Assembly: GCA_050261335.1 (NCBI GenBank)
Contig: JBLNDE010000058.1
Span: 102,968-166,967 of the forward strand
Source of the DNA: Bacillota bacterium
GTDB taxonomy: Bacteria; Bacillota; SHA-98; UBA4971
DNA length: 64,000 bases
Direction of reading: 5' to 3'
Below are positions 5,603 to 56,410 of the stretch, piece after piece. Within the stretch, counting starts at the first letter, position 1; every line of letters begins with the position of its first letter. The notes under the pieces were generated by a model. The model saw only the letters and a list, made by a program, of their open reading frames with translations. It made no database searches and was not told the origin of the DNA. Position numbers and translations under genes: made by a program.

Positions 5603-6916
5603 ATGATCAGAAAGGCAGCGATGAAAGCACAAACAGGGTCAATGGCCACGCGCATTGCGCGGGCGTTCGCAGGCAATTTCGGCCGGATTCGAGGAAACGC
5701 CAGAGCCATCCTGCTTCTCGAACCCATGTGGGCCATACCCTTCAGCATGTACAGCGTCTATGCCAGCCTGTTCATGCGGGAACTCGGCCTCACCTCGCAG
5801 CAGATCGGCCTTCTGGCCTCGGTGGGCATGGCGAGCACGATTCTGAGTTCGGGCGTCTCCGGCTATGTCACAGATCGGCTCGGGCGGCGGCGGACAACCC
5901 TCATCTTCGACATGGCGTGCTGGTCGGCCTCGACGCTCGCCTGGGCCACTGCGCACGGTTTCTGGCAGTTCTTCCTGGCGGCTGTCCTCAACGGGTTGCA
6001 GGCCGTTCCTATGACATCCTGGACATGTCTGCTCGTGGAGGATAGCGACCCGCACGACCGGCTTCCCATTTTCACGGCCCTGCAGGTGATAACCGTAGCG
6101 GCGTCCTTTGCCACCCCTCTTGCGGGGCTGGCTATCCGGCGCTACGGGGTGGTGACAGGCACCCGGGGCCTGTATCTTTTTGCCTTCATCAGCATGACCA
6201 CGATGTTCCTGCTACGCAACCACCTTACGCGGGAGACCCGGGTGGGCCATGCCCGGAGGAGCGCCACGGGCTCGCATGGATTCCGGGAGTCGCTGAGCGA
6301 ACATGGCGGCGCGCTCCGTTCGATGCTGCGACACCGTGAGGCCCTCACATACTTCCTCCTTGCGGCAATTGTATGGTTCCGCGACAGCCTCACCCTGCCG
6401 TTCGGGCAGTTGCTGCTGGTTGACCGCCTGGGGTTGCCAGGCGACATCCTGGCGACGTTTCCCGCCCTGGGCGCCGTCGCAACGCTTCTGGTATCGGCGT
6501 TCGTCCTGCCAGCCCTTGCGCGGCACGAGGGCGCGGGGATCCTGGGTGGCCTGGCCTTGTCCGGGGCGTCCACAGCCATACTGCTCTGCGTGCCTCGCGG
6601 CAGCGTGGCCGGCGTGGTGGTGAGCAGCGTCGTCGGAGCTGCCGGCGCCGCGATGTTCGTGCCGGCCCTGAACACCGGATGGAACAACTCGCTCTCTGAC
6701 AGCGGGAGAGCGCAGATCCTGGCCATGTCCTCCACCACCTGGGGCCTAGCCCGCCTTCCGGCAGGCTGGATCGGTGGGCAGCTTTACGCCCTCGCGCCGG
6801 TATCGCCCTTTTACGCCGGGCTCGCTCTGACCGTGGCTGGCATGGCCCTGGTCTCCTTGCGGGCGATGCGGACGGCTCCCCACGCGAGATCCCCCCGCAG
6901 CGAGCGTGCGATGTAA
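5603..6916 (+). CDS. MFS-family transporter
   Basis: 437-aa ORF with 12 predicted TM segments and MFS signature-like motif (GYVTDRLGRRRT); alternative ATG at 5621. Confidence 0.75.
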   Translation: MIRKAAMKAQTGSMATRIARAFAGNFGRIRGNARAILLLEPMWAIPFSMYSVYASLFMRELGLTSQQIGLLASVGMASTILSSGVSGYVTDRLGRRRTTLIFDMACWSASTLAWATAHGFWQFFLAAVLNGLQAVPMTSWTCLLVEDSDPHDRLPIFTALQVITVAASFATPLAGLAIRRYGVVTGTRGLYLFAFISMTTMFLLRNHLTRETRVGHARRSATGSHGFRESLSEHGGALRSMLRHREALTYFLLAAIVWFRDSLTLPFGQLLLVDRLGLPGDILATFPALGAVATLLVSAFVLPALARHEGAGILGGLALSGASTAILLCVPRGSVAGVVVSSVVGAAGAAMFVPALNTGWNNSLSDSGRAQILAMSSTTWGLARLPAGWIGGQLYALAPVSPFYAGLALTVAGMALVSLRAMRTAPHARSPRSERAM

Positions 6917-7018
6917 CCCTCTTTGGCCTCCTTTCTTCCTGCCCCAGGGATCCTCCTTGCCAGCCGCCCGGCCGGCGTCTGCTGCCAGGTGGCCGGCGCC
7001 AGGGCGCCGGGTGGCGGT

Positions 7019-7048
7019 TGACAGTGCGGGCTGCGTCCCGTAGACTTG
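7019..7048 (+). promoter_or_regulatory. candidate sigmaA promoter (TTGACA-17-TAGACT)
   Basis: ggTTGACAgtgcgggctgcgtcccgTAGACTtgg upstream of the Uma2 remnant. Confidence 0.35.
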
Positions 7049-11666: not shown

Positions 11667-11780
11667 CCTCATACCTCCGCATCACTCACGTCCTGGTGCA
11701 TCTGCGTGTGTGCCCGTGCCAGCGCGCTAGGGCCGTCACGTCACTAACCGACTCTCTTCGAGTCGCCAGCAACCCATCTC

Positions 11781-11890
11781 AAAGCCGGCAACATTCTTGC
11801 GCGAGACCGTTGATTCTCCCCGGTAACTGTCAGTTCGGCCGTGGACGGCGACCGTCTTCCGGGATTCCACCGGGTCGCGCTGCCATGAAA
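11781..11890. repeat. copy X of a ~110-nt duplicated non-coding element (second copy at 21048-21157)
   Basis: ~85% identity over ~110 nt: ...gcgcgagaccgttgattctccccggtaactgtcagttcggccgtggacggcgaccgtcttccgggattccaccgggtcgcgctgccatgaa. Confidence 0.6.
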
Positions 11891-15627: not shown

Positions 15628-15886
15628 CTTCAATCGCCCTCCTCGTAGACGTTCAGAGTCGTTCGCGTCACCCGCGTTACCCTTCGTGCAACCTTCGCGC
15701 CACCTTCTTGCCGCCCCTTCGTACCACCTCTCCCATCGTCTCGGGATGTTCCCGCGATCCCACCTGGATGCGTGGATGTGCGACCAATCGTCCTCTCGGC
15801 GAGTTCCGGCTTCATCCGGCTTCCGCCCCGCCTTCCTGGGCCGTTCCATCACCTCCCTTTGCTTTGAGTGTGACCGCGCCCTTGCG

Positions 15887-18658
15887 TCACACTGCCTTCA
15901 TCGAGTTCCCCCAGCCTTCGGGCAGAACCACCAGTTTGCAGCATTCGCCGGGGTCGAGGGCGACGTCGACGGAGCCTCCGGACGCCGCTTGGGTGCGCGC
16001 AGCCTCCCATCGCCCGTCCTTGCCGAGACAGGCCGCTTCCACTCTCCATGGGCGCCTGAGGTGGGCGGCGGAGGTGAGGTCCACGGTGCCCTGGAACCGC
16101 GTGGACGTCGGGTTGTACACCAGCACCGACCGGGGCGCGTCCTCGTCCATGAACGGGCGGTCCCAGTCGAGAAGGTCGAGGTAGACCGTGGTTATCGACG
16201 GGTCCGATGCCCTTGCGAATGCCTCGAACATGAGATACAGCCACAGGACCTCGCCGGCGCCGTATATCTCCTTGCCCACGTAACCTGTGGAGTCTGGTAG
16301 TTCCAGCGTGCCGATGTTCTCGTAGGGGATGTGGGGGCAGGCCGCTCCTGTCCGCTCCGGCTCCGGCAGGAAGGGATCGAAGTAGTAGAAGTTATTGCGG
16401 CGCTGAAGGTCCAGGACCCTGAGGAGGGCGGGGTTGAAACCGCCTTTTTTCAGCAGCGGCAGCCATGGCAGCACCGACTCGACGTTCTCCTTGAACGCAG
16501 GGTAAAGGATGGACGCGCATGCCTGGAAGAGGCCACGCGTGTGATACGCGCCGCGGCTTCGCGCGAGGTCATCGTACCAGTAAAGCATCCGCAGCTCGGC
16601 GCGGATGAGGTCATGAGAGATGCGGGCGAGGGACGGGTCGTCGAGGAGCGACGAAAGCTCGAAGGCCGCGAGCGCCCCGAACGCGAACTGCTGAGGCTCG
16701 TGGTACAGGAGGTCGAGCGGCAGCCTGATCATGGTCAGGAGGGCGTCCCTCGCCTCGCCCAGGAACTCCTCACGCCCGCTGAGGCGGAACGCGAGGACCG
16801 CGCCGTAGGCGTAGAGCCCGGCCACGGAGTAGTTCGTTCCCGAGTCCGCCGGCATACCGGTCGCAGGGTCGTAGAAGAGAGGGAAGACGTGGCGCACGTT
16901 GTGGGCGTAACGCCTGGCGCTCTCGAAAGCCGCCATGAACATGTTCGCGAGCTTCGCCGTGTCAGCCGCGGGGGGTGTGAGGCGGTGCGATTCCTGAAGT
17001 ATCTGCCATGCTTTTACTGCCTGCTGTGTCTGCTGTGTGTTCGGCGTGCGGGGCGCATGCGGCGCATGCGGCGCGTGCAATGCGCACAGTGAAGGCGGCA
17101 TCCGCCGCGCCGCCTGCTGCGCAGCCCGCTCACGCGTCTTCTGCGCCGCCTGCGACATCTCCAGGAGGTGCACGATCCACGGCCACTTGATGAGGCCATT
17201 CTCGAAGGAATACCACGTATCCACTTTCTCCTGGCCGTGCGTGTGCGGGTAGTTGTTGCTGATGAAGCCGATGTCCTCCCGGAAGAAGTGGGGGAGGGTG
17301 GCCGTCAGGCGGCGAAGGTACTCGAGCAGAGCCGAATCCGGGCCTGCGCTGACCCCCCGGGGCGCGTCGATCCCAGGGCCTCTCTCGCACGGGTGCTGCA
17401 GGCAGGAAGCGGGCTCACCGTGGCGGGCGGGTGCGGCCGCATCTTCGGATGAGGCGGCGGATCTGCCGGGCTCGCTTGCGCGGGCGTAGTGCAGGAGGGG
17501 CCAGAGCACGTCTGCCTGCGTCATCAGCTCGAACGACCGCGGCTCCGCCCACTGACGCGAGCTCGAGCGCACGTATGCGGGGTGACCCCAGATGCCCTCC
17601 ACCTCGGTCTGGCATGCTGGGTCGTGCATGAGCTCATCCAACGCCGCGCCGGCCACTTCCGCCCAGGAGCCACGTGGAAGGCGTCCACTCCGGCGCCCCT
17701 GCGACCGAGGCCCGAGTTCCGGCTTCTCATCGCCGCCGAGGAGCAGCGAGGCGGCGTCGATGAGCGTCGCGAGGGCATCCCACTGCGAAGGGATGTCCTG
17801 GCGGTGGCGCTGGTAGATTGAGTATCGGAAGACGTGGTCGCCTGCGGGGAAGACCCGGCCGTGGTAGTGGTCTGCCCAGAGCCCCACGCCGAACCGCTCC
17901 TTGCGCGGCCCGCCGAGCTTGCTTGAGCACAGGCAATCCTCGAACCTTGCCAGACTCGCCCGGGACATCCATGTCATGCAGGTCATGTCGAAGTACAGGA
18001 CGACCTCGGCACGTCGGACAGGGTCGTAGCAATACACGGCGGGGAAGTCGTTGCCCCGCACGCCGGTGCAGTTCCTCGTGGGGTTCGAGATGACGACCCT
18101 GCGCCACTCGTGGTTCTGGCGCTCGTTCATGGTGGCGTACTCTGACATCCAGAGGACTATCTCCGGCTCGATGGACGGGGATGGCTGAAGGACCAGCGGC
18201 CTTTCGAGGTGGACGGCGACGGACACGTGGATCCACGGGTCGCCGGGCGTCACGGAGACTTCGGCGTCGAACGGGTACAGGGCTTTGTCGACATCGCGAA
18301 GACCCTCCGCGTCCGTCGCGCAGTATTCGGGGTTGCGCGGGGCGGCGCCGTCTTTCGGCACGCATCCCGTTCCGGTCCCTGAGAAGAGGACGGCCTGCCG
18401 TCCGTCGCCGCGTGAGGGAGCGATGGTGTATGAAGACGGCGCAAGGTCGAAACTGGCCCCGCCCACGAGGACGTTGGGAAGGCCGGCGACAACCGTCCAC
18501 CCGGCTCCGTCGTGCACGCGGGTTGTGAAGCGCAGTCTACCGTCGTCCCCGCGCCTGAAGATCATCTGTTGCCCTGACGCGGTAACGACCGGCCCTGACG
18601 GCGTGTCGTATATGGCTGTGTCGCGTTCGGACAGACCTGGGAGGTCGCGGTCTTCCAT
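15887..18658 (-). CDS. large hypothetical protein (~920 aa), possibly a novel carbohydrate-active enzyme
   Basis: Long ORF with AGGAGG RBS before ATG 18658; immediately downstream of the LacI regulator and upstream of the sugar ABC transporter and glycosidase on the same strand; no confident family assignment from sequence alone. Confidence 0.55.
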   Translation of the reverse strand: MEDRDLPGLSERDTAIYDTPSGPVVTASGQQMIFRRGDDGRLRFTTRVHDGAGWTVVAGLPNVLVGGASFDLAPSSYTIAPSRGDGRQAVLFSGTGTGCVPKDGAAPRNPEYCATDAEGLRDVDKALYPFDAEVSVTPGDPWIHVSVAVHLERPLVLQPSPSIEPEIVLWMSEYATMNERQNHEWRRVVISNPTRNCTGVRGNDFPAVYCYDPVRRAEVVLYFDMTCMTWMSRASLARFEDCLCSSKLGGPRKERFGVGLWADHYHGRVFPAGDHVFRYSIYQRHRQDIPSQWDALATLIDAASLLLGGDEKPELGPRSQGRRSGRLPRGSWAEVAGAALDELMHDPACQTEVEGIWGHPAYVRSSSRQWAEPRSFELMTQADVLWPLLHYARASEPGRSAASSEDAAAPARHGEPASCLQHPCERGPGIDAPRGVSAGPDSALLEYLRRLTATLPHFFREDIGFISNNYPHTHGQEKVDTWYSFENGLIKWPWIVHLLEMSQAAQKTRERAAQQAARRMPPSLCALHAPHAPHAPRTPNTQQTQQAVKAWQILQESHRLTPPAADTAKLANMFMAAFESARRYAHNVRHVFPLFYDPATGMPADSGTNYSVAGLYAYGAVLAFRLSGREEFLGEARDALLTMIRLPLDLLYHEPQQFAFGALAAFELSSLLDDPSLARISHDLIRAELRMLYWYDDLARSRGAYHTRGLFQACASILYPAFKENVESVLPWLPLLKKGGFNPALLRVLDLQRRNNFYYFDPFLPEPERTGAACPHIPYENIGTLELPDSTGYVGKEIYGAGEVLWLYLMFEAFARASDPSITTVYLDLLDWDRPFMDEDAPRSVLVYNPTSTRFQGTVDLTSAAHLRRPWRVEAACLGKDGRWEAARTQAASGGSVDVALDPGECCKLVVLPEGWGNSMKAV

Positions 18659-18662
18659 GGAG

Positions 18663-19898
18663 TCATGCCTCCGTTTCGTTTGTCGGCTCGGACGTTTCGC
18701 CGCCCGCCGTGCCACTCGTGGCGGATGCAGGCATGGCCACCGTACCGCGCGTCATGAGCGTCGCCCGGATCACGATTTTGATCGGGGCGGGGTCGACCCC
18801 GTTGATGATATCCACGAGCCTGCGGGCGGCGATGGAACCAAGCTGCTGCTTTGGGATGTGCATCGTTGTGAGCGGGGGGTGGGTGTGGCTCGCCACCTGT
18901 ATGTCGTCGAACCCGATGACGGACACTTCGTCCGGCACCCTGATGCCGCGCTCGTGGAGAGCCTTGAGCACACCGAGCGCGGTCATGTCGTTGTCCGCGA
19001 ATATGGCGGTTGGCGACTGAGGCAGGTCCATCAGACGGAGCGTTCCCTCATATCCGATCTGCGGGCCATGCGTGTCAACGGACTCGGAGAACACCACCAA
19101 TCTACGATGGGACGGCAGGCGAAGTTCGTCAAGGGCCTTCGTATAACCAGCATAACGCTGCGCAAGGGAGATGTGCGACTGCGGCCCACCGACGAAAGCG
19201 ATCCGGCGGTGGCCGGAGCGGTATAGGTGCTCTATCGCAGACCTGGTCGCGGCCTCGTTGTCCGAGACCACGCAGTCTACAGGCTCGCCCGGAAGCTCGT
19301 TATCCACGAGGACCACCGGGATCCCACGCTCGCGGGCTGTCCGGGCCACCTGCGGGTGAACGTCGCATCCCACGAGGAGCAGTCCTCTGAAGCCGCTGCA
19401 GCCGTTCTCGCCTGCCTGATCAGCGAAGAGACCGCTGTTATCGCCGGCGCCGTCTATGCTTCGAAGGAAGACCCGGTAGCCCAGGTTCTGCAGGCTTTCC
19501 TCGATGCCCGCCACTACTGCGCCGTAGAACGGGTCGGTCACCAGGGACGAAAGCCGCCTGTTGAATACGATGCCGATGCTTGCGCTCAAGCCTCCAGACA
19601 CGCCGGCGCCCGCACCCACACTCGCGCCCGCGCCGCCGCCACTGCCACTGCTACTGGCGCCGCTGTTGCCGCTGCTATTGCCGGTGCTATTGCGGCCGCC
19701 GCCCGCGCCGTGCCATGCCCTGGGCCCCGTAGCCGCGTCCACCGCCTCCGCGCGTGGACGGTAGCCCAGTGACCGCGCTACGTTCAGGACGCGGGAACGG
19801 GTCCGCTCGCTGATCCGCCCTTTCCGGCTGAGGGCTCGTGATGCCGTGGAAGGCGAGACTCCGGCCTGCCTCGCGATCTCTCGAATGGTCGTGTCCAC
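18663..19898 (-). CDS. LacI-family transcriptional regulator with Gly/Ser-rich insertion
   Basis: N-terminal HTH (MDTTIREIARQAGVSPSTASRALS) and periplasmic-binding-fold C-terminal domain; ~60-aa G/S/A low-complexity insert after the HTH. Confidence 0.85.
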   Translation of the reverse strand: MDTTIREIARQAGVSPSTASRALSRKGRISERTRSRVLNVARSLGYRPRAEAVDAATGPRAWHGAGGGRNSTGNSSGNSGASSSGSGGGAGASVGAGAGVSGGLSASIGIVFNRRLSSLVTDPFYGAVVAGIEESLQNLGYRVFLRSIDGAGDNSGLFADQAGENGCSGFRGLLLVGCDVHPQVARTARERGIPVVLVDNELPGEPVDCVVSDNEAATRSAIEHLYRSGHRRIAFVGGPQSHISLAQRYAGYTKALDELRLPSHRRLVVFSESVDTHGPQIGYEGTLRLMDLPQSPTAIFADNDMTALGVLKALHERGIRVPDEVSVIGFDDIQVASHTHPPLTTMHIPKQQLGSIAARRLVDIINGVDPAPIKIVIRATLMTRGTVAMPASATSGTAGGETSEPTNETEA

Positions 19899-20230
19899 TG
19901 AGGAATCGTCTCCCTTTCGGCAATCGTCCTCCTGCCTCGGCGATCGTCTTCTTGCGGTCGCCGCGTTCTCGCTGCGGAGTGACGATCACTGTTGCAGTGT
20001 TGTGGTGTTCTGGTGTTGTGGTGTTGCGCAAACATGCGCACGCGTTGCCCATCTATTGATGCAATACTATGTCACGCGCCAGATTCCTCCTTTCGGGCGG
20101 AATTCTTTTCGCATTCGCAGCTTACCCAAGAATGCCAGCGGAGCAGGCAGAAGAGAGGGCGTACGCCACGCAGGCACGCTCGCGCGGACGCTCGCAGGCA
20201 TGTTGCGCACAGTTGCGCATCGCGCGCAGA

Positions 20231-20303
20231 AGGGAGACGGCTCGTCCCTGGTACTGCTCTGTCAGATACGAAATGCCATCCGGTCTTGGGGGTCTGGCGG
20301 GCT
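20231..20303 (+). repeat. conserved ~65-nt leader element, copy 1 (second copy at 23199-23279)
   Basis: gtactgctctgtcagatacgaaatgccatccggtcttgggggtctggcgggcttgtctggcagg vs gtactgctttgccagatacgaaataccacccggcctcgcgggcctggcgggtttgtctg...: ~85% identity; flanks not similar. Confidence 0.7.
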
Positions 20304-20350
20304 TGTCTGGCAGGTCGGCTCCTGGCCGTGGTGGCCGTGGTGGCCATGGT
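20304..20350 (+). repeat. short tandem repeat (GGCCGTGGT)x~4-5 between leader 1 and array 1
   Basis: tggccgtggtggccgtggtggccatggtggccgtggtggccc; absent from the second copy. Confidence 0.8.
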
Positions 20351-20389
20351 GGCCGTGGTGGCCCTTGACCGTGCAGTTCCTTGGAAACC

Positions 20390-20860
20390 CGTGATGTACG
20401 GAACGGGTGCCGCAGAAAGAGTGATGTACGTCAGCAGTCGGTTCCGATGCGTAACGCAAGGAACGGGTAAGGCCGGGACCGGTGACGTACATCAGCGGAT
20501 GGCGCTCAATGATGACGTAGGGAACAGCTCAGGGGGAACCCGTGATGTACGTCACCCGTCCCGCTTCGACGAGTGACGTACGGAACGATTTATGGAGAAC
20601 CCGTGATGTGGGGAACGGATAAGGCGGGAACGCTGATGTACGTCACCGATTGGCTCCCGATTCGTGACGTATGGAACGGGAAGAGCCAGAGGAGTGACGA
20701 GCGTCATCCTTCCCCTTGCATGCGTGACACAGGGAACGGGTAAGGTCCGGACCAGTGATGTACATCAGCGGATGGCGCTCAATGATGACGTAGGGAACCG
20801 TTGAGGACGGACCCGTGACGTACGTCAGCCGTCGGCTCTGGTGACGGCACTATCAGGCGC
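20390..20860 (+). repeat. array 1: ~15 direct repeats with ~30-31-nt period, each starting GTGAYGTAYG; alternating palindromic (GTGAYGTACGTCAC) and GGAAC-type (GTGACGTAnGGAACGGG) units
   Basis: Unit starts near 20390, 20420, 20451, 20481, 20512, 20541, 20571, 20602, 20633, 20662, 20693, 20722, 20753, 20784, 20813; ~66-nt segment duplicated within the array (20461-20525 vs 20727-20795). Confidence 0.85.
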
Positions 20861-20929
20861 TCCATATGTGACAGAGCAGTACTAAGTGAGGGTTCGTTGG
20901 CTCTTCCCCGTTTTCTAGCGGCTGCTGGG

Positions 20930-21045
20930 CTCTCGGTGTTGCACTCGGAGACGGCGCTCTGAGCCGGGCGCGCTTCGCCAAAACCTGGCTCGCCGGGCCA
21001 GTCGCCGGGTCTTGACACCTCTCGTGCAGTCACCGCGAGCCCCTC
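20930..21045. repeat. dispersed intergenic repeat family 2, copy A (core GTTGCACTCGGAGACGGCGC...GGGCGCGCTTCGCCAA)
   Basis: Shares 60-120 nt of similarity with copies at 56280-56410, 49398-49560, 40970-41070 and 25487-25580. Confidence 0.55.
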
Positions 21046-21047
21046 CC

Positions 21048-21157
21048 AAAGTCGGAAGCATTTCCGCGCGAGATCGTCGATTCTCCCCAGTAACTGCCAG
21101 TTTGGGCGTGGACGGCGACCGTTTTCCGGGATTCCACTGAGTTGCGTTGCCATGAAG
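21048..21157. repeat. copy Y of the ~110-nt duplicated element (see 11781-11890)
   Basis: ...gcgcgagatcgtcgattctccccagtaactgccagtttgggcgtggacggcgaccgttttccgggattccactgagttgcgttgccatgaa; ~135 nt upstream of the DUF1848 gene. Confidence 0.6.
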
Positions 21158-21293
21158 TGGAGGAAACCGGCAATCTCCTGCACCATCACTTGGGGGGGCG
21201 GGGCAGAGGGCTGCTTGGCTTTTACCGACGCTTCTTTGGGTGTAGAATGCTATTGGCAGGAGCACGCTGCCCGCCCTGCCTTCCTCGCACGAG

Positions 21294-22148
21294 GTGAGCG
21301 AAGTGATCATTAGCGCAAGCCGCAGGACTGACATACCGAAGTTCTACGCCGAGTGGTTCATGGACCGCGTTCGCGCCGGCCGCTGCGCGTGTCCGAATCC
21401 CTTCAATCCGAAGCAGGTCTTCGAGGTGTCCCTGCGGCCCGAGGACGTTGACGTGATCGTCTTCTGGAGCAAGGACCCGGATCCCCTCCTGGCGCACCTG
21501 GACGAGCTCGACCGCAGGGGGTTCAGGTACTACTTCCAGTTCACCCTGAACGGCTATCCGTCGTTCCTGGAGCCGGGCGTGCCGCCGCTGGAGAAGACCT
21601 TCGCGACGTTCAGGCGCCTGTCGGAGGCGGTCTCTCCTGAAAGGGTGATCTGGCGCTACGACCCGATAGTGCTCACCAGCGTGACTGATGCTTCATATCA
21701 CGAGCGCCGGTTCCGGGAGATCGCAACGGCCCTCGCGGGCAGAACCAGGCGCGTGGTCATAAGCCTCGTCGACGATTATCGGGGCTCGCGCGCTCGCCTC
21801 GCCCGGCTGGCAGGCCAGGGCATACAGGTAGCGCAGCGATGCAGCGCCGATGACCCGCCCACGGCAGGCCTCCTTGCGACTATGGCGCGCGTCGCCGTCG
21901 AGTCGGACATGGAGATCGTGACCTGCGCTGAGGAGAAGGGCCTCGAAAGCCTCGGGATCAAGCCCGGCAAGTGCATCGACGACGAGTACATCGCCCGCGT
22001 TTTCGGCATCCGCGTCCCGGGCAAGAAGGACCCCGGCCAGCGCGCGGCATGCGGCTGCGTCGTGAGCAGGGATATCGGCGTGTACGGCACGTGCCGGCAT
22101 GGTTGCCTCTACTGCTACGCTTCCGCAACCGTCCCGCAACTTTCTTGA
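21294..22148 (+). CDS. DUF1848-family protein with C-terminal Cys cluster (possible Fe-S enzyme)
   Basis: N-terminal ISASRRTDIPKFYAEWF characteristic of DUF1848; C-terminal CGCVVSRDIGVYGTCRHGCLYC; GTG start; candidate -10 TAGAAT at ~21243. Confidence 0.65.
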   Translation: MSEVIISASRRTDIPKFYAEWFMDRVRAGRCACPNPFNPKQVFEVSLRPEDVDVIVFWSKDPDPLLAHLDELDRRGFRYYFQFTLNGYPSFLEPGVPPLEKTFATFRRLSEAVSPERVIWRYDPIVLTSVTDASYHERRFREIATALAGRTRRVVISLVDDYRGSRARLARLAGQGIQVAQRCSADDPPTAGLLATMARVAVESDMEIVTCAEEKGLESLGIKPGKCIDDEYIARVFGIRVPGKKDPGQRAACGCVVSRDIGVYGTCRHGCLYCYASATVPQLS

Positions 22149-22167
22149 CAACTGGGGTCCGGTAGTC

Positions 22168-22205
22168 CTAGAATAAAGGCGGCGATCATATATATGTAGC
22201 ATGCA
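22168..22205 (+). promoter_or_regulatory. AT-rich imperfect palindrome (ATATATGTAGCATGCATATAT) plus TAGAAT element upstream of the padR-like gene; candidate autoregulatory operator/promoter
   Basis: Only strongly AT-rich stretch in the local region, centred on GCATGC, immediately upstream of RBS AGGGAG. Confidence 0.35.
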
Positions 22206-22224
22206 TATATAGGGAGCGATCAGA

Positions 22225-22644
22225 ATGTGCAACGATGATCGGGACCGGTGCCACTCCAACGGGTCGAGGGCCCACAGGTGCGACTGCGCAGGTTCGCGGG
22301 TCGAGCGCTTCATCGAGCCGTGCCTGCTCTTGCTCCTGCTCGAGAAGCCTGCGCACGGGTACGACCTGATGGAACGGCTCAGGGAATTCGGGTTCGATGC
22401 CGAAGACCAGGACCCCGGCATGGTATACCGCAACCTTCGGCGCCTCGAACACCAGGGCATGGTCGAATCCGAGTGGGACACATCCGGGCCTGGCCCCGCA
22501 AAGCGCCTCTACCAGGTCACAGCGGAAGGTCGCGACTTACTTCAGGCGTGGAGCGCGGTCATCAGGCGGAACAAGGCGACCCTCGAGGAATTCCTCGAAC
22601 GTTACGAAGCTCTGGCAGGACGATCCGATACTCCCTCCGGATGA
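22225..22644 (+). CDS. PadR-family transcriptional regulator with Cys/His-rich N-terminal extension
   Basis: Winged-helix PadR core (LLLLLLEKPAHGYDLMERL...MVYRNLRRLEHQGMVESEW...KRLYQVTAEGR); N-terminus MCNDDRDRCHSNGSRAHRCDCAG; AGGGAG RBS. Confidence 0.75.
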   Translation: MCNDDRDRCHSNGSRAHRCDCAGSRVERFIEPCLLLLLLEKPAHGYDLMERLREFGFDAEDQDPGMVYRNLRRLEHQGMVESEWDTSGPGPAKRLYQVTAEGRDLLQAWSAVIRRNKATLEEFLERYEALAGRSDTPSG

Positions 22645-22885
22645 CTCCCGCTTCCTCATCGCGTATGGTAAACGTGGTACACGGGATGTGGGGATGCGCG
22701 TCTTTGGCAAAGGGCTGGCTTTGGAGCCGGCTTCCAGAAAAGCGCCCCACGACTCCTGCCGGGCGGTGCTGCGGGTGGCGGGGGAGGACGAATTTCCAGC
22801 TTGGGGCCAGAGAAGGTGGCCAATCTGAAGGGCTTATCCCTAAGGGCGAGACCCGGAAGGCGGGCATGGAAAGGAGGGGGAGGAC

Positions 22886-23107
22886 GTGATGTGTTGTGAA
22901 GGACACACTTACCATCATGGTGCAAGGGAGCATGCGGGCGGAGGATGCTGCTGCCATGCGGAGCCACGATATTTCCATAGGCGCTTCTTTTCGCGCGAGG
23001 AGACCCTTGGGATGCTCAAGGACTACCTCGAAGACCTGAGGGCCGAGGTGCGCGAGGTCGAGAGGCGGATAGAGTGCCTCGAGAAGGACGCTCATAAAGA
23101 GGAGTAG
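22886..23107 (+). CDS. DUF5320-family small protein (Cys/His-rich N-terminus plus coiled coil)
   Basis: MMCCEGHTYHHGAREHAGGGCCCH...RRFFSREETLGMLKDYLEDLRAEVREVERRIECLEK; strong RBS AGGAGGGGGAGG. Confidence 0.6.
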   Translation: MMCCEGHTYHHGAREHAGGGCCCHAEPRYFHRRFFSREETLGMLKDYLEDLRAEVREVERRIECLEKDAHKEE

Positions 23108-23198
23108 GGTGGCATCTCTTCACGGAAGGCGGCCCGCACATGTGTTGGTTTGCGTATGCATTGAGTCGTTGGCGGGCCGCCTGTCACGTTTTGGCCTA

Positions 23199-23279
23199 GT
23201 ACTGCTTTGCCAGATACGAAATACCACCCGGCCTCGCGGGCCTGGCGGGTTTGTCTGCGTCTGGCAGGGGGGGCGCCGG
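23199..23279 (+). repeat. conserved leader element, copy 2
   Basis: See 20231-20303. Confidence 0.7.
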
Positions 23280-23352
23280 GGAGGGATGGAGCGACTCGTG
23301 GTCTTGGTGACCCTTGACAGCGTGGCTCCCGGAAGACCGTTCCCGGAAGACC

Positions 23353-23895
23353 CGTGATGTGCTGAAGGGGTAGTACGGAAAGAGTGACGCACGGTACCCG
23401 TCCCGTTGCACGCGTGACACAGGGAACCGGTGAGGACAGGACTAGTGCTGTACATCAGCGGACGGCTCCCAAGCGTAACGTGCAGAACGCTTGGGAAACA
23501 ACCCGTGATGTGCGTCACCCGTCCCGGTTCGAGAGTGACGTATGGAAGACTTCGCGGTGGAGCCGTGACGCAGGGAACGAATAGGGTGGCAGTGATGATG
23601 CACGTCACTGATCAGGCGCGGATGCGTGACGTGCGGAACACTTCATGAGGAACACGTGACGGAGGGAACGGGTAAGGCGGGAAGGATGACGTACGTCACG
23701 GATCGGGTCCTGATGCGTGACGCGCGGAACGGGAAGAGCCTGACCAGTGACGTAGGTCACGCGTTCCCTGGCACATGTGATGTTGGAAACGGGTAGGGCC
23801 GTGACGGGTGAGGTGCGTCACCCGATAGCTGTCAACGATCACGTGGGGAACGCTTAGTGAAACACCCGTGACCTACGTCAACCGTCAACTTCCAG
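23353..23895 (+). repeat. array 2: ~18 direct repeats with ~30-nt period, same GTGAYG-initiated repeat family as array 1
   Basis: Unit starts near 23353, 23384, 23414, 23445, 23475, 23505, 23535, 23565, 23592, 23626, 23656, 23687, 23716, 23746, 23776, 23800, 23842, 23867; includes palindromic units (GTGATGTGCGTCACCC, TGACGTACGTCAC) and GGAAC-type units. Confidence 0.85.
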
Positions 23896-23950
23896 GGCCA
23901 TCGAACGGCGGGAGCGGGGGAGCCGTCGGTTTTCCGCGTTCAAAGAGCGA

Positions 23951-24487
23951 ATGGTCTTCCCAGCGGACTCGAAATGGGCGCACTGTCCAGACAGGGGGTG
24001 GACTGTTACGTTCACGTCGACTACATATACAATCGCTATTGTGTTTTTCCTCATCTCATTCGCGAAGGACCGCGACAGGACCCGCACGGCCTTACGTAAG
24101 TCCCTCGCCGCGTTTCTCGGTATCCTTCCTGACTTCGCGGCGGTGCTGGCCGTTGTTGGGCTTGTTCTGACGTTCCTGTCCCCGACGACAGTGGCCGGAC
24201 TCATAGGGGCGGGGACCGGGTTTGTCGGGATGATCATCACCTCGCTCATAGGCGCCGTCACCCTGATCCCGGGTTTTGTCGCTTTCCCGCTCGCTAAGTC
24301 CCTCCTTGAACGCGGCGCCGGGATCGCCCAGATAGCAGTGTTTGTGTCCACGCTCATGATGGTCGGCTTTGTGACCGCACCTCTTGAGATCCGCTACTTC
24401 GGCAGGAAGGTCACGCTCCTCAGGAACGGTCTCGCATACCTGTATTCCTTCATAGTGGCCTTCATCATAAGGGTGGTGGTTAAGTGA
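23951..24487 (+). CDS. permease (DUF318/PF03773), first subunit of a split two-component membrane permease
   Basis: Hydrophobic multi-TM ORF; stop overlaps GTG start of second half (GTGA); true start may be downstream of 23951. Confidence 0.6.
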   Translation: MVFPADSKWAHCPDRGWTVTFTSTTYTIAIVFFLISFAKDRDRTRTALRKSLAAFLGILPDFAAVLAVVGLVLTFLSPTTVAGLIGAGTGFVGMIITSLIGAVTLIPGFVAFPLAKSLLERGAGIAQIAVFVSTLMMVGFVTAPLEIRYFGRKVTLLRNGLAYLYSFIVAFIIRVVVK

Positions 24488-25486: not shown

Positions 25487-25580
25487 GGCATGGCGCCATA
25501 AGTTCTCGCCACTTTTCTTGAGGGTGCTAGGGTTGCCTGTGCTTGCTGGGGCGGGGTGCCGGGAATTTGGCTGGCCCGTG
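25487..25580. repeat. dispersed repeat family 2, copy E (5' module ATGGCGCCATAAGTT...GGTTGCC.GTGCTTGC...)
   Basis: ~80% identical over ~75 nt to 49398-49475. Confidence 0.55.
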
Positions 25581-25584
25581 CGCC

Positions 25585-25700
25585 AGATTCGGACGAGGCT
25601 CGCCGCACGCGCCGTCCCCGGAGGGCAACACCGGCAACCCTGCTGGAAAGGACTCGCCCGCTGAAATGGGGCGCGAACTTGCGGCGATGCACTTAGCATG
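25585..25700. repeat. dispersed repeat family 3, copy F2 (CCGCACGCGCCGTCCCCGGAG.GCAACAC.GGCAAC...GCTGAAA...GCGCGAA...GGCGAT..ACTTAGC)
   Basis: ~110 nt similar to 33880-33995. Confidence 0.55.
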
Positions 25701-33840: not shown

Positions 33841-33879
33841 CGCCTGAGCATACCGCGATAAGCCTTGAGCGCCGAATTC

Positions 33880-33995
33880 GAACGCATCTCACCGCACGCG
33901 CCGTCCCCGGAGTGCGACACGGGCAACTCTGGATAGAGCCTGCGCGCTGAAAAGTAGCGCGAAATGGTGGCGATCTACTTAGCGCCTTGCGGCCG
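33880..33995. repeat. dispersed repeat family 3, copy F1
   Basis: See 25585-25700. Confidence 0.55.
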
Positions 33996-40884: not shown

Positions 40885-40969
40885 CGTGGTGAGCGACTTG
40901 CGCAGGGTGATACCAGGTAGATCGTCGCAGACCCGCGCCACTTGTGAGTACGGGAATCCTGTCCAGGGT

Positions 40970-41070
40970 CGCCGGTGTTGCACTCCGGGGACTGCGCGTG
41001 CGGAGCGATGCGTTCGAGTCTGGCGCTCAAGACCGGCCGAATTCCGGGCGCCCCGCCCTGGCAAGCACCG
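40970..41070. repeat. dispersed repeat family 2, copy D
   Basis: ggtgttgcactccggggactgcgcgtgcggagcg...; upstream of the SpoIID-like gene. Confidence 0.5.
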
Positions 41071-41107
41071 GCAGCTCCGACATCTTCAGGAAAAGCAGCG
41101 CAGATGT

Positions 41108-45649: not shown

Positions 45650-45795
45650 GCTGCCAAGTTACCCTCCGAGTCACGACGCCTGCACCTTTCATGGATGGCG
45701 CGTGACCGGCAGCCGCGAGGGTCACGCCTTTGCGGCTCGAGGGTTTGCTGGGAAACCGGCAAGCCTCCCATTATTGGAAAGGAGATGTAAGAATC
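45650..45795 (+). ncRNA. candidate molybdenum/tungsten-cofactor (Moco-type) riboswitch upstream of tupA
   Basis: Leader contains CCCTCCGAG...CTCGAGGG pairing and GCCTCCcattattGGAAAGGAG overlapping the RBS, reminiscent of the Moco RNA motif; assignment from memory, not verified. Confidence 0.3.
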
Positions 45796-46680
45796 ATGTC
45801 AGGTCTCAAGGGTCTTCTCTTCGCTCACGTAGGACGTCAGCTCGTCATGTTCACGCTGCTCATAAGTACCCTCGCTACGATTCCCGGTACCGCCGCCACT
45901 GCGGCGCCCGCCAGCCGTGAGGTCATCCTGGCCACCACCACGAGCACACAAGACAGCGGCCTCCTCGACGTGCTAATCCCCATGTTCGAAAGCCAGACCG
46001 GGTACATAGTAAAGACCATCGCCGTCGGAACGGGGCAGGCCCTCGCGCTCGGGGCGCGGGGCGAGGCTGACGTGCTCCTGTGCCACGCACCCGCGGCTGA
46101 GATGGAGCTCGTCAAGAGCGGAGCTGCCACGAACCGCAAGCTCGTCATGCACAATGACTTCATCATCGTGGGGCCGGCGACCGACCCGGCCGGCATACGG
46201 GGCGTTGCGTCCGCGGCTGAGGCTTTCGCGAAGATCGCCGCAGCACAGGCTGTATTCGTGTCGCGGGGCGATGATTCCGGCACGCACAAGAAGGAGAAGG
46301 AGATCTGGACGAAGGCTGGGGTGAAGCCCGCGGGGCGCTGGTACCAGGAGGCTGGGGCCGGCATGGGACAGACCCTCAACATCGCGTCAGAAAAAGGGGG
46401 TTACACTCTCACCGACCGCGCCACGTACCTCGCGCTCAAGAAGCGCCTGGGCCTCGAGATCCTGGTGCAGGGCGACGGGGTGCTCCTCAACATCTACCAC
46501 GTGATGCAGGTGAACCCCGAGAAGTTCGACAAGGTGAACGGGCCGGGGGCCGTCGCTTTCGTGGACTTCATGGTTGCTGAGAGCACCCAGAAGGCCATAG
46601 CCTCGTTCGGCGTCAAGGAGTACGGCGAGCCGCTCTTCTTTGCCGACGCCGGCAAGAGCGAGAACGAGCTCGGGCGGTGA
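45796..46680 (+). CDS. tupA: tungstate ABC transporter substrate-binding protein TupA
   Basis: TTTSTQDSGLLD anion-binding motif typical of TupA/WtpA; signal peptide; AAGGAG RBS. Confidence 0.8.
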   Translation: MSGLKGLLFAHVGRQLVMFTLLISTLATIPGTAATAAPASREVILATTTSTQDSGLLDVLIPMFESQTGYIVKTIAVGTGQALALGARGEADVLLCHAPAAEMELVKSGAATNRKLVMHNDFIIVGPATDPAGIRGVASAAEAFAKIAAAQAVFVSRGDDSGTHKKEKEIWTKAGVKPAGRWYQEAGAGMGQTLNIASEKGGYTLTDRATYLALKKRLGLEILVQGDGVLLNIYHVMQVNPEKFDKVNGPGAVAFVDFMVAESTQKAIASFGVKEYGEPLFFADAGKSENELGR

Positions 46681-49397: not shown

Positions 49398-49560
49398 GTA
49401 TGGCGCCATAAGTTTGCGCCATCTTCCCTGACGGTGTTGGGGTTGCCGGTGCTTGCACTCCGGGGACGGCGCCCCAGGTCAGGGCGCGCTGTGGCAGTAT
49501 CTGGATTGCCCGGCAACCGACGGGGGCTCGAGGCCTCTTGTGTAGTCACCTCAGCGTACT
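49398..49560. repeat. dispersed repeat family 2, copy C (begins immediately after the moeA stop)
   Basis: tatggcgccataagtttgcgccatcttccctgacggtgttggggttgccggtgcttgcactccggggacggcgcc... Confidence 0.55.
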
Positions 49561-56209: not shown

Positions 56210-56279
56210 CGTTCCCGTGCGCCCTGAGCAGATCGCCGCAAATCTGCGCTGCTCTTCAGCGCGCAGGTCCTCGCCAGGG

Positions 56280-56410
56280 TTGTCGCTGGTGCACTCGGGG
56301 ACGGCGCGCCAAGCGGGGCGCGCTTCGCCAAGAGCCGGCCTGTCGGGCGGGCGGCCGGATTCTAACACCCCTCGTGCCGCACCGTGTGTCTGCACGTCGG
56401 GCGATAAGGC
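56280..56410. repeat. dispersed repeat family 2, copy B
   Basis: ggtgcactcggggacggcgcgccaagcggggcgcgcttcgccaagagccggcc...; between convergent guaA and the purine permease. Confidence 0.55.

Follow-up and report, generated by a model that had tools for sequence, protein, structure and literature searches.

We characterised two repeat modules that lie in direct orientation in a 64,000-nt stretch of DNA from a Bacillota bacterium (contig JBLNDE010000058.1 of assembly GCA_050261335.1), here called the window, whose positions are used throughout. Both modules start with a G-rich leader, which is followed by an array of repeats with a period of about 30 nt, and three genes lie between them. Each module is, with good probability, one copy of a non-autonomous DNA transposon, namely a MITE (a miniature transposable element with inverted repeats) of the IS630/Tc1-mariner type that is specific to uncultured high-GC Bacillota of a narrow clade. 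We regard it as a MITE because it has terminal inverted repeats (TIRs), TA flanks, a small size and no coding capacity, occurs in dispersed copies, shows insertion polymorphism and shares its termini with shorter elements. The presence of two copies in direct orientation on both sides of the three genes is coincidental.

The initial annotation of the window had described two leader-plus-array modules with a period of ~30 nt and two alternating types of repeat, and our analysis confirmed all of this. Array 1 (20388-20841, +) has 15 units with cores from 20391 to 20815, and array 2 (23351-23894, +) has 18 units with cores from 23354 to 23868. The unit is composed of a 14-nt core and ~16 further nt, and the cores are of two types, A (GTGAYGYRNGGAAC) and B (the palindrome GTGAYGTRCRTCAS), which follow each other in array 1 in the order ABABABAABABABAB. 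The spacing from core to core is strictly 30/30/31 nt in both arrays (mean 30.33 nt, superperiod 91 nt), and the period of 91 was called by Tandem Repeats Finder (TRF) at 23564-23730 in array 2. Array 1 also contains a higher-order repeat, as its units 1-6 return as units 10-15, 273 nt (9 units) further on, with 78% identity. The two arrays are ~70% identical to each other. The motif GTGAYGTNNG was found 15 times in the 64-kb window, compared with 5.0 +/- 2.1 expected matches, and 13 of the 15 are inside the two arrays.

The leaders are 84% identical between 20247-20309 and 23195-23257, and a weaker likeness (71%) runs on as far as the arrays. Three positions, 20250 (+), 20869-20883 (-) and 23198 (+), carry the 15-nt inverted repeat AGTACTGCTCTGTCA, and array 1 is enclosed by 27-nt inverted repeats (20251-20277 and 20856-20882, 81% complementary), which the initial annotation overlooked. 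The first of them is the left TIR of copy 1 (GTACTGCTCTGTCAGATACGAAATGCC, 20251-20277, +), and it is exactly here that similarity begins in the multi-copy alignment. It is preceded at 20249-20250 by the dinucleotide TG, where most other copies have TA. Repeat comparison and the multi-copy alignment delimit the leader, or 5′ module, of copy 1 at 20251-20387 (+). Its array is followed by a tail (20842-20882, +), in which the alignments place the right TIR at 20856-20882 (ending in CATATGTGACAGAGCAGTAC), and then by TA at 20883-20884. For copy 2, the same two approaches delimit a leader at 23199-23350 (+) with the left TIR at 23199-23222 and TA before it at 23197-23198. The tail of copy 2 (23895-23988, +) is non-canonical: it contains a weak hairpin and TTTT at ~23909-23936 and has no match to other copies. 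The ATG at 23951, the first listed start of the downstream open reading frame (ORF) for an ArsP-type permease, falls inside this tail.

We scanned one genome per species, covering 185,579 species, with the family-specific array pattern GGAACGGRTAAGGN{9,10}TGAYGTAC, for which we estimated ~2 chance matches. The scan returned 16 matching stretches, all in two related metagenome-assembled genomes (MAGs), that is in only 2 of the 185,579 species genomes. Fifteen of them are on 14 contigs of the MAG Bacillota bacterium Yes71-24 (JASEJE01), in both orientations, and one is in Firmicutes bacterium UBA6811. MAGs that bear the name Yes71 in a published study originate from groundwater at Yessentuki, a deposit of mineral water (PMC12667266). 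The scanned copies show 71-91% identity to module 1 over up to the full length of the module. Two loci, L050 in Yes71-24 and L056 in UBA6811, are orthologous to window positions 15856-21064 (92% identity) and have module 1 at the same site; copy 1 is therefore old, since two sister species of ~92% identity share it at this position. Every other locus is paralogous and matches the window only in the module or in other dispersed repeats. Leader 1 in the window additionally contains a 9-nt microsatellite (TGGCCGTGG x4.6, 20323-20363), which is peculiar to the window and represents a recent local expansion, since the orthologous copies L050 and L056 do not have it.

Most copies, including most of the paralogous ones, have exactly 15 units (454 nt), and the number ranges from 13 to 18. 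In the survey of neighbours, 17 of 17 element copies were intergenic, with the truncated copy L054 abutting the stop codon of a HAD-like gene. No ORF with coding-type GC content at third codon positions overlaps the interior of any element, and flanking ORFs touch only the truncated L054 at its edges. The genes next to the copies are unrelated (GH4, GT2, CarA, aminotransferase, ABC ATPase, GH65, amidase, GntR, ADP-ribosylglycohydrolase and DUF3084), and Pfam searches with ten neighbouring genes showed them to be related neither to one another nor to DUF1848/PadR. Module 1 had no blastn match in plasmid and phage collections, and the family-specific pattern had none in viral contigs. A generic three-core pattern did match viral contigs 35 times, but, judged by appearance only, nearly all of these matches were coding-looking 30-nt repeats (10-aa period, often with identical units) or simple tandem repeats, and none was related. 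As for individual copies, L054 (~6540-6560, minus) is a truncated array of 13 units without a leader, and its array sequence TTCGACGAGTGA apparently provides the last codons and the stop codon of the adjoining HAD-hydrolase-like gene. In L048 (~2700-2850), the usual tail is replaced by a ~70-nt inverted partial leader, which results in much longer inverted ends.

The borders of the element were determined by aligning 18 copies with 100-nt flanks; a cleaner alignment, A1, contains 11 copies. Similarity among the 18 copies begins abruptly at RTACTGCTCTGTCAGATACGAAAT (RTACTGC...) and stops at CATATGTGACAGAGCAGTAY (...GCAGTAY). The TIRs are 20-27 nt long (RTACTGCTCTGTCAGATACG ... CATATGTGACAGAGCAGTAY), and both of them are conserved in WIN1, L043, L044, L047, L050, L053, L055, L056, L058 and L049. 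TA is present before 13 of the 16 left ends and after 9 of the 11 right ends, with TG in the exceptions, and the wider junction in most copies reads C-TA, element, TA-R, which places the TA within CTAR. TA within CTAR or CTAG, together with TA duplication, is the target signature of the IS630/Tc1-mariner superfamily. The whole element is 0.60-0.64 kb long and has the order TA, left TIR, G-rich leader of ~125 nt, units, tail of ~40 nt with the inverted TIR, and TA. In L043, the array element is directly followed by a 133-nt mini-element with the same termini and no array, and the two share a single TA (...GCAGTAC-TA-GTACTGC...GGCAGTAC-TA-G). Insertion into the TA that flanks the first element would produce such a junction. 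Both strands of the element fold far better than shuffled sequences (z = -5.3 for the G-rich strand and -7.0 for the antisense strand), and strong folding of both strands is typical of MITEs. We also considered that the whole element might form a foldback, but global alignment with its own reverse complement matched only the TIRs and the palindromic cores.

Insertion polymorphism can be followed at the site of copy 2. Homologues of the PadR gene upstream of this copy place the source organism among uncultured high-GC Bacillota. In the relative L003 (PadR 89% identical), the genes for PadR, a small protein, two ArsP-type permeases and CorA form one tight block with no leader or array. In L002 and L005 (74%), the permease genes come after PadR, with or without the small protein in between, and there is again no module and no array. 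In L006 (91% DNA identity), DUF1848, PadR, the small protein and leader 2 are followed by a permease gene; leader 2 is retained with 91% identity but without the array, and the missing part is a 638-nt block (window 23351-23988) that consists of array 2 and the tail of copy 2. Module 2 is thus absent from L003, represented only by its leader in L006 and present with leader and array in the window. As the PadR, small-protein, permease and CorA genes are contiguous in relatives without module 2, the module must be an insertion into an otherwise contiguous gene block. The empty site could not be reconstructed from L003, whose intergenic DNA has diverged too far and holds a different MITE. A short-read contig of the same organism (L001, 100% identical) ends inside array 2, as would be expected of an array that is a dispersed repeat. 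In L006, at 2341-2360, the N-terminal part of permease 1 is fused to the C-terminal part of permease 2 (window 24243 and 25081), with ~840 nt apparently deleted; the cause is either an allele with this deletion or an error in assembly.

Several points weigh against the assignment to IS630/Tc1-mariner-type MITEs. We found no autonomous transposase or insertion sequence (IS) with matching TIRs in the 64-kb window or in ~122 kb of fetched loci from Yes71-24 and UBA6811, and a scan of JGI metagenomes for an autonomous IS with the TIR pattern gave a single true match, at the already known L043 locus, besides 8 chance matches. The reading of TA as a target-site duplication would follow from the consistency of the junctions and from the shared-TA junction, and it is not fully separable from a TA that belongs to the inverted repeat itself. 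Copy 2 has no right TIR, and no clean pair of filled and empty orthologous sites was recovered among the fetched relatives. Moreover, a selfish element in simple decay would not account for the count of exactly 15 units in most copies, nor for an array with higher conservation than the TIRs.

The initial annotation had seen in the modules the borders of a three-gene cassette, with a layout resembling a CRISPR locus without cas genes. That they are functional boundaries of a mobilisable DUF1848/PadR/small-protein cassette, serving as recombination substrates, or belong to a CRISPR-like system lacking cas genes, is in our opinion extremely improbable. The two copies are indeed in direct orientation and 2.9 kb apart, and rearrangement breakpoints among relatives coincide with element ends, L056 diverging from the window exactly after the right TIR. 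However, the initial annotation had itself named, as an outcome that would refute it, repeats scattered through the genome without a tie to a leader or to these gene families. The module is indeed scattered, at no fewer than 15 other intergenic loci beside unrelated genes, none with the three genes nearby, so the modules do not delimit a cassette. With an identity of only ~70%, the two copies in the window would be ill suited to homologous recombination. In relatives, PadR and the small protein accompany the permease genes even where no module is present, and the L003 contig shows no linkage of DUF1848 to PadR, as the 640 nt that it contains upstream of PadR include no DUF1848 sequence. With CRISPR arrays the element shares a leader followed by regularly spaced repeats, but CRISPR requires near-identical repeats of 23-47 nt with unique spacers, whereas here the 14-nt core is degenerate and, with the 30-nt period, outside CRISPR geometry. 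The 'spacers' are collinear, 86% conserved between unrelated loci and the same from copy to copy, hence not acquired. No Cas families were detected among the 20 window proteins scanned against Pfam, and the element, unlike CRISPR arrays, has TIRs and TA flanks. Leader and array do form one unit, as initially described, and this unit has no CRISPR features. We give equally little credit to the idea that the arrays are ordinary minisatellites which expanded in place in two intergenic regions, outside any mobile element. It would agree with the variation in unit number (13-18) and with the expanded 9-nt microsatellite in leader 1, but the order of units, the unit-specific spacers, the leader and the tail are collinear at unrelated loci, which means that the whole 0.6-kb block was copied as a unit, and this block is delimited by the TIRs and TA flanks.

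Regarding the array itself, column conservation was computed across 9-10 non-orthologous copies. The outer core positions (GTGA and GAAC/TCAC) reach 0.96-0.98, compared with 0.87 in the core centre, 0.86 in the spacers, 0.85 in the leader and 0.81-0.89 in the TIRs. The outer positions exceed the spacers even when CpG/TpG/CpA positions are left out (Mann-Whitney p = 5e-10), and the variation in the core centre is mostly C/T and G/A at CpG. This pattern suggests that the array is functionally constrained, and its conserved dyads GTGA-N6-GAAC/TCAC are most likely candidate sites for a dimeric DNA-binding protein that would serve the element or the host. The phasing is such that GTGA-N6-TCAC/GAAC recurs every 30.33 bp, and 9 units make 273 bp, or ~26 helical turns. 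A scan of leader and tail with a position-weight matrix, which addressed the cores as reiterated TIR or transposase sites, gave nothing above shuffled controls, and the array is thus more than a mere series of repeated transposase sites.

Two further explanations concern what the element may do, and the one that assigns a role to DNA binding is compatible with its being a MITE. The array may be a selected periodic platform with one 14-bp dyad site per unit, 30.33 bp from centre to centre, which the MITE would only spread. Its partner, a dimeric DNA-binding protein, may belong to the host, as a regulator or nucleoid protein, or may assist the transposon as an accessory factor. The conserved outer tetranucleotides surround a freely varying centre, as in sites of dimeric helix-turn-helix proteins; sites of the CRP/FNR and Rex types share the GTGA-N6-TCAC spacing, and the 30/30/31 unit length is strictly kept in all copies. 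On the other hand, we identified no candidate binding protein, the isolated B-type dyad GTGAYNNNNRTCAC is absent elsewhere in the 64-kb window, which gives no sign of a host regulon that uses the site, and the TIRs contain no core-like site (best matrix scores of -7.9 and 4.2, compared with at least 15 for true cores). The conservation could also stem from constraint on a master copy or from short-tract gene conversion between units. We consider the platform possible but doubtful. A more elaborate form, which we find unlikely, is that the MITE is the vehicle of a selected, phased array of ~15 dyad sites on which a dimeric DNA-binding protein would assemble as a higher-order nucleoprotein structure. 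By transposition, such platforms (sponges, insulators or nucleoid anchors) would be placed at a dozen or more intergenic sites, or else the element itself would need the array in order to transpose. The other explanation is that a structured non-coding RNA makes up all or part of the element. Its G-rich strand would be functional, co-transcribed with the genes next to it and involved in mRNA stability or termination, a role that has been proposed for BOX, ERIC and Correia elements. In 8 of 8 copies between co-directional genes, the sense strand is the G-rich one (two-sided binomial p ~0.008), this strand folds strongly (z = -5.3), and BOX elements, too, are transcribed and have predicted folds (PMC3049150). 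Yet the antisense strand folds even better (z = -7.0), and the search of the whole window with Rfam 15 gave no match at the locus, the only hit above threshold in the window being a Moco riboswitch. RNAalifold on 11 copies attributed to covariation only -1.44 of -135.5 kcal/mol, with pairs that join interchangeable cores and almost never covary. The scan of the leaders detected no promoter and only weak terminator-like hairpins at about the frequency of shuffled sequences. The orientation bias may also have simpler causes, such as Rho-dependent polarity of a C-rich, G-poor untranslated transcript in the opposite orientation or replication-strand skew, and altogether we regard a functional RNA as improbable.

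The architecture had initially been thought to have no known counterpart, which our results do not support, as the TIRs and TA flanks are those of a MITE and the modular build is like that of BOX. The closest architectural counterpart appears to be the BOX element of Streptococcus pneumoniae, boxA-(boxB)n-boxC, and the likeness is one of architecture only. Both elements are dispersed, non-coding and intergenic, consist of a 5′ module, a tandem array and a 3′ module, have inverted-repeat ends, fold strongly and vary in the number of internal modules. The boxB module is 45 nt long and its repeat number varies. The element described here, in contrast, has a mostly fixed number of 15 non-identical units of 30/31 nt in two alternating types, measures 0.6 kb (BOX roughly 0.1-0.3 kb) and has clear TA flanks. 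Homology to boxA, boxB or boxC, compared by description only, seems implausible given a GC content of 60% versus ~40% in BOX. For BOX elements, mobilisation in trans by an IS transposase has been proposed, and the TIRs of RUP elements resemble those of IS630-Spn1 (PMC3049150). RUP of pneumococcus, Correia of Neisseria and Nezha of cyanobacteria, all MITEs derived from IS630/Tc1-mariner elements, have in common with our element short TIRs, insertion at TA, no transposase gene, many intergenic copies and nested or abutting insertions. However, they are ~100-160 bp long with simple interiors, whereas our element holds a 454-nt periodic array, and no cognate IS was identified for it. The array also resembles plasmid centromere and iteron arrays (F sopC with 12 x 43 bp, R1 parC, P1 incA) in its tandem units, dyad-symmetric protein sites (putative in our case) and fixed helical phasing; those arrays are single-copy and located beside par or rep genes, whereas this one sits on the chromosome in many copies, as part of a TIR element and with neither par nor rep genes in its vicinity. 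What distinguishes the element from known MITEs and BOX is the long array of two alternating unit types in nearly fixed number, better conserved than the ends, and the restriction to a narrow clade. It probably represents a new lineage-specific MITE family with a BOX-like modular build.

The spread of this MITE can be envisaged as follows. A transposase of the IS630/Tc1-mariner type encoded elsewhere would bind the TIRs and cut and paste the element into TA within CTAR, with duplication of the TA, and the cognate transposase gene would be expected between the ends RTACTGCTCTGTCA...TGACAGAGCAGTAY plus TA. Copies would build up in intergenic DNA, where the number of units may then shift by slippage or unequal exchange, as in the boxB modules of pneumococcal BOX elements. 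Copy 2 would have inserted between the gene for the small Cys/His protein and the two permease genes and lost its right end.

Other small repeats were frequent in the same genomes. A second abundant MITE family of 191 nt, flanked by TA (TA, AGTGTGGGTTCAG...CTCACACT, TA), is present in almost every fetched locus. In the window we found it at 25530-25642 (-), 33861-33933 (-), 40962-41087 (+) and 49440-49472, and it is also present in L003 at 1309-1392 and, as an intact 191-nt copy, in L050 at 6829-7019, where it splits a HEPN-like ORF beside a nucleotidyltransferase gene. An end related to this family (TA followed by AGTGAGGGTTCG) adjoins the right TIR of copy 1 at 20883 and likewise borders the array elements of L047 and L048. 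The dispersed repeat that begins there (20883-21090, +, end approximate; 'R2' MITE family and related) is unrelated to the array element and not part of it. More dispersed intergenic segments, 71-80% identical, occur downstream of copy 1 (20883-21300) and at 11752-11889, 56277-56384 and 49447-49550, so that the intergenic DNA of the source genome looks like a patchwork of small repeats.

The surroundings are those of an ordinary chromosome, with TsaD, SpoIID, LytR and peptidases recognised by Pfam. Copy 1 is located between a gene for a LacI-type regulator and DUF1848, while copy 2 is preceded by the gene for the small Cys/His protein and followed by both permease genes. The three host genes between the copies (21294-23107, +) are bystanders: DUF1848 at 21294-22148, PadR at 22225-22644 and a 73-aa Cys/His protein at 22886-23107. 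Of the labels they had initially been given, DUF1848 (E = 4e-98) and PadR (E = 6e-18) were recovered by Pfam, while the 73-aa protein had no Pfam match and its label 'DUF5320' remained unconfirmed. The latter protein has the N-terminus MMCCEGHTYHHG...GGGCCCH and a C-terminal coiled coil, and the N-terminal extension of PadR (22225-22330) is likewise Cys/His-rich. Judging from their sequences and from the genes downstream of them, two for half-size permeases of the ArsP type and one for CorA, PadR and the 73-aa protein suggest a metal-responsive unit. The region just upstream of PadR (22145-22212) has a strong sigma-70-type promoter (TTGACA-18-TAGAAT) and, after it, the AT-rich dyad CATATATATGTAGCATGCATATATAG, and it is kept in L003, L006 and L007; the dyad is probably the autoregulatory operator of PadR. 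A long hairpin (GGCGGCCCGC...GCGGGCCGCC) and a T-run, read from the sequence and also present in L006, lie just upstream of copy 2 (23129-23185, +) and are likely to act as the terminator of the PadR/small-protein unit. The Moco (molybdenum/tungsten cofactor) riboswitch mentioned above is located at 45652-45797 (+; 60.9 bits, E = 3.6e-12).

With these results a false lead is removed, as the arrangement of the two modules defines neither a new cassette nor a CRISPR-like system. They also account for the breaking of metagenome assemblies of this clade at the sites of the element. In the source lineage, a copy of the element stands between two groups of genes, PadR and the small protein on one side and the permeases and CorA on the other, that adjoin each other in relatives. 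The puzzle that remains is a bacterial MITE with a long, fixed and strictly phased array, in which a dyad motif is better conserved than the ends that a transposase would bind. If this conservation reflects protein binding, the element would be a clear case of a transposon that spreads ready-made arrays of binding sites around a bacterial chromosome.

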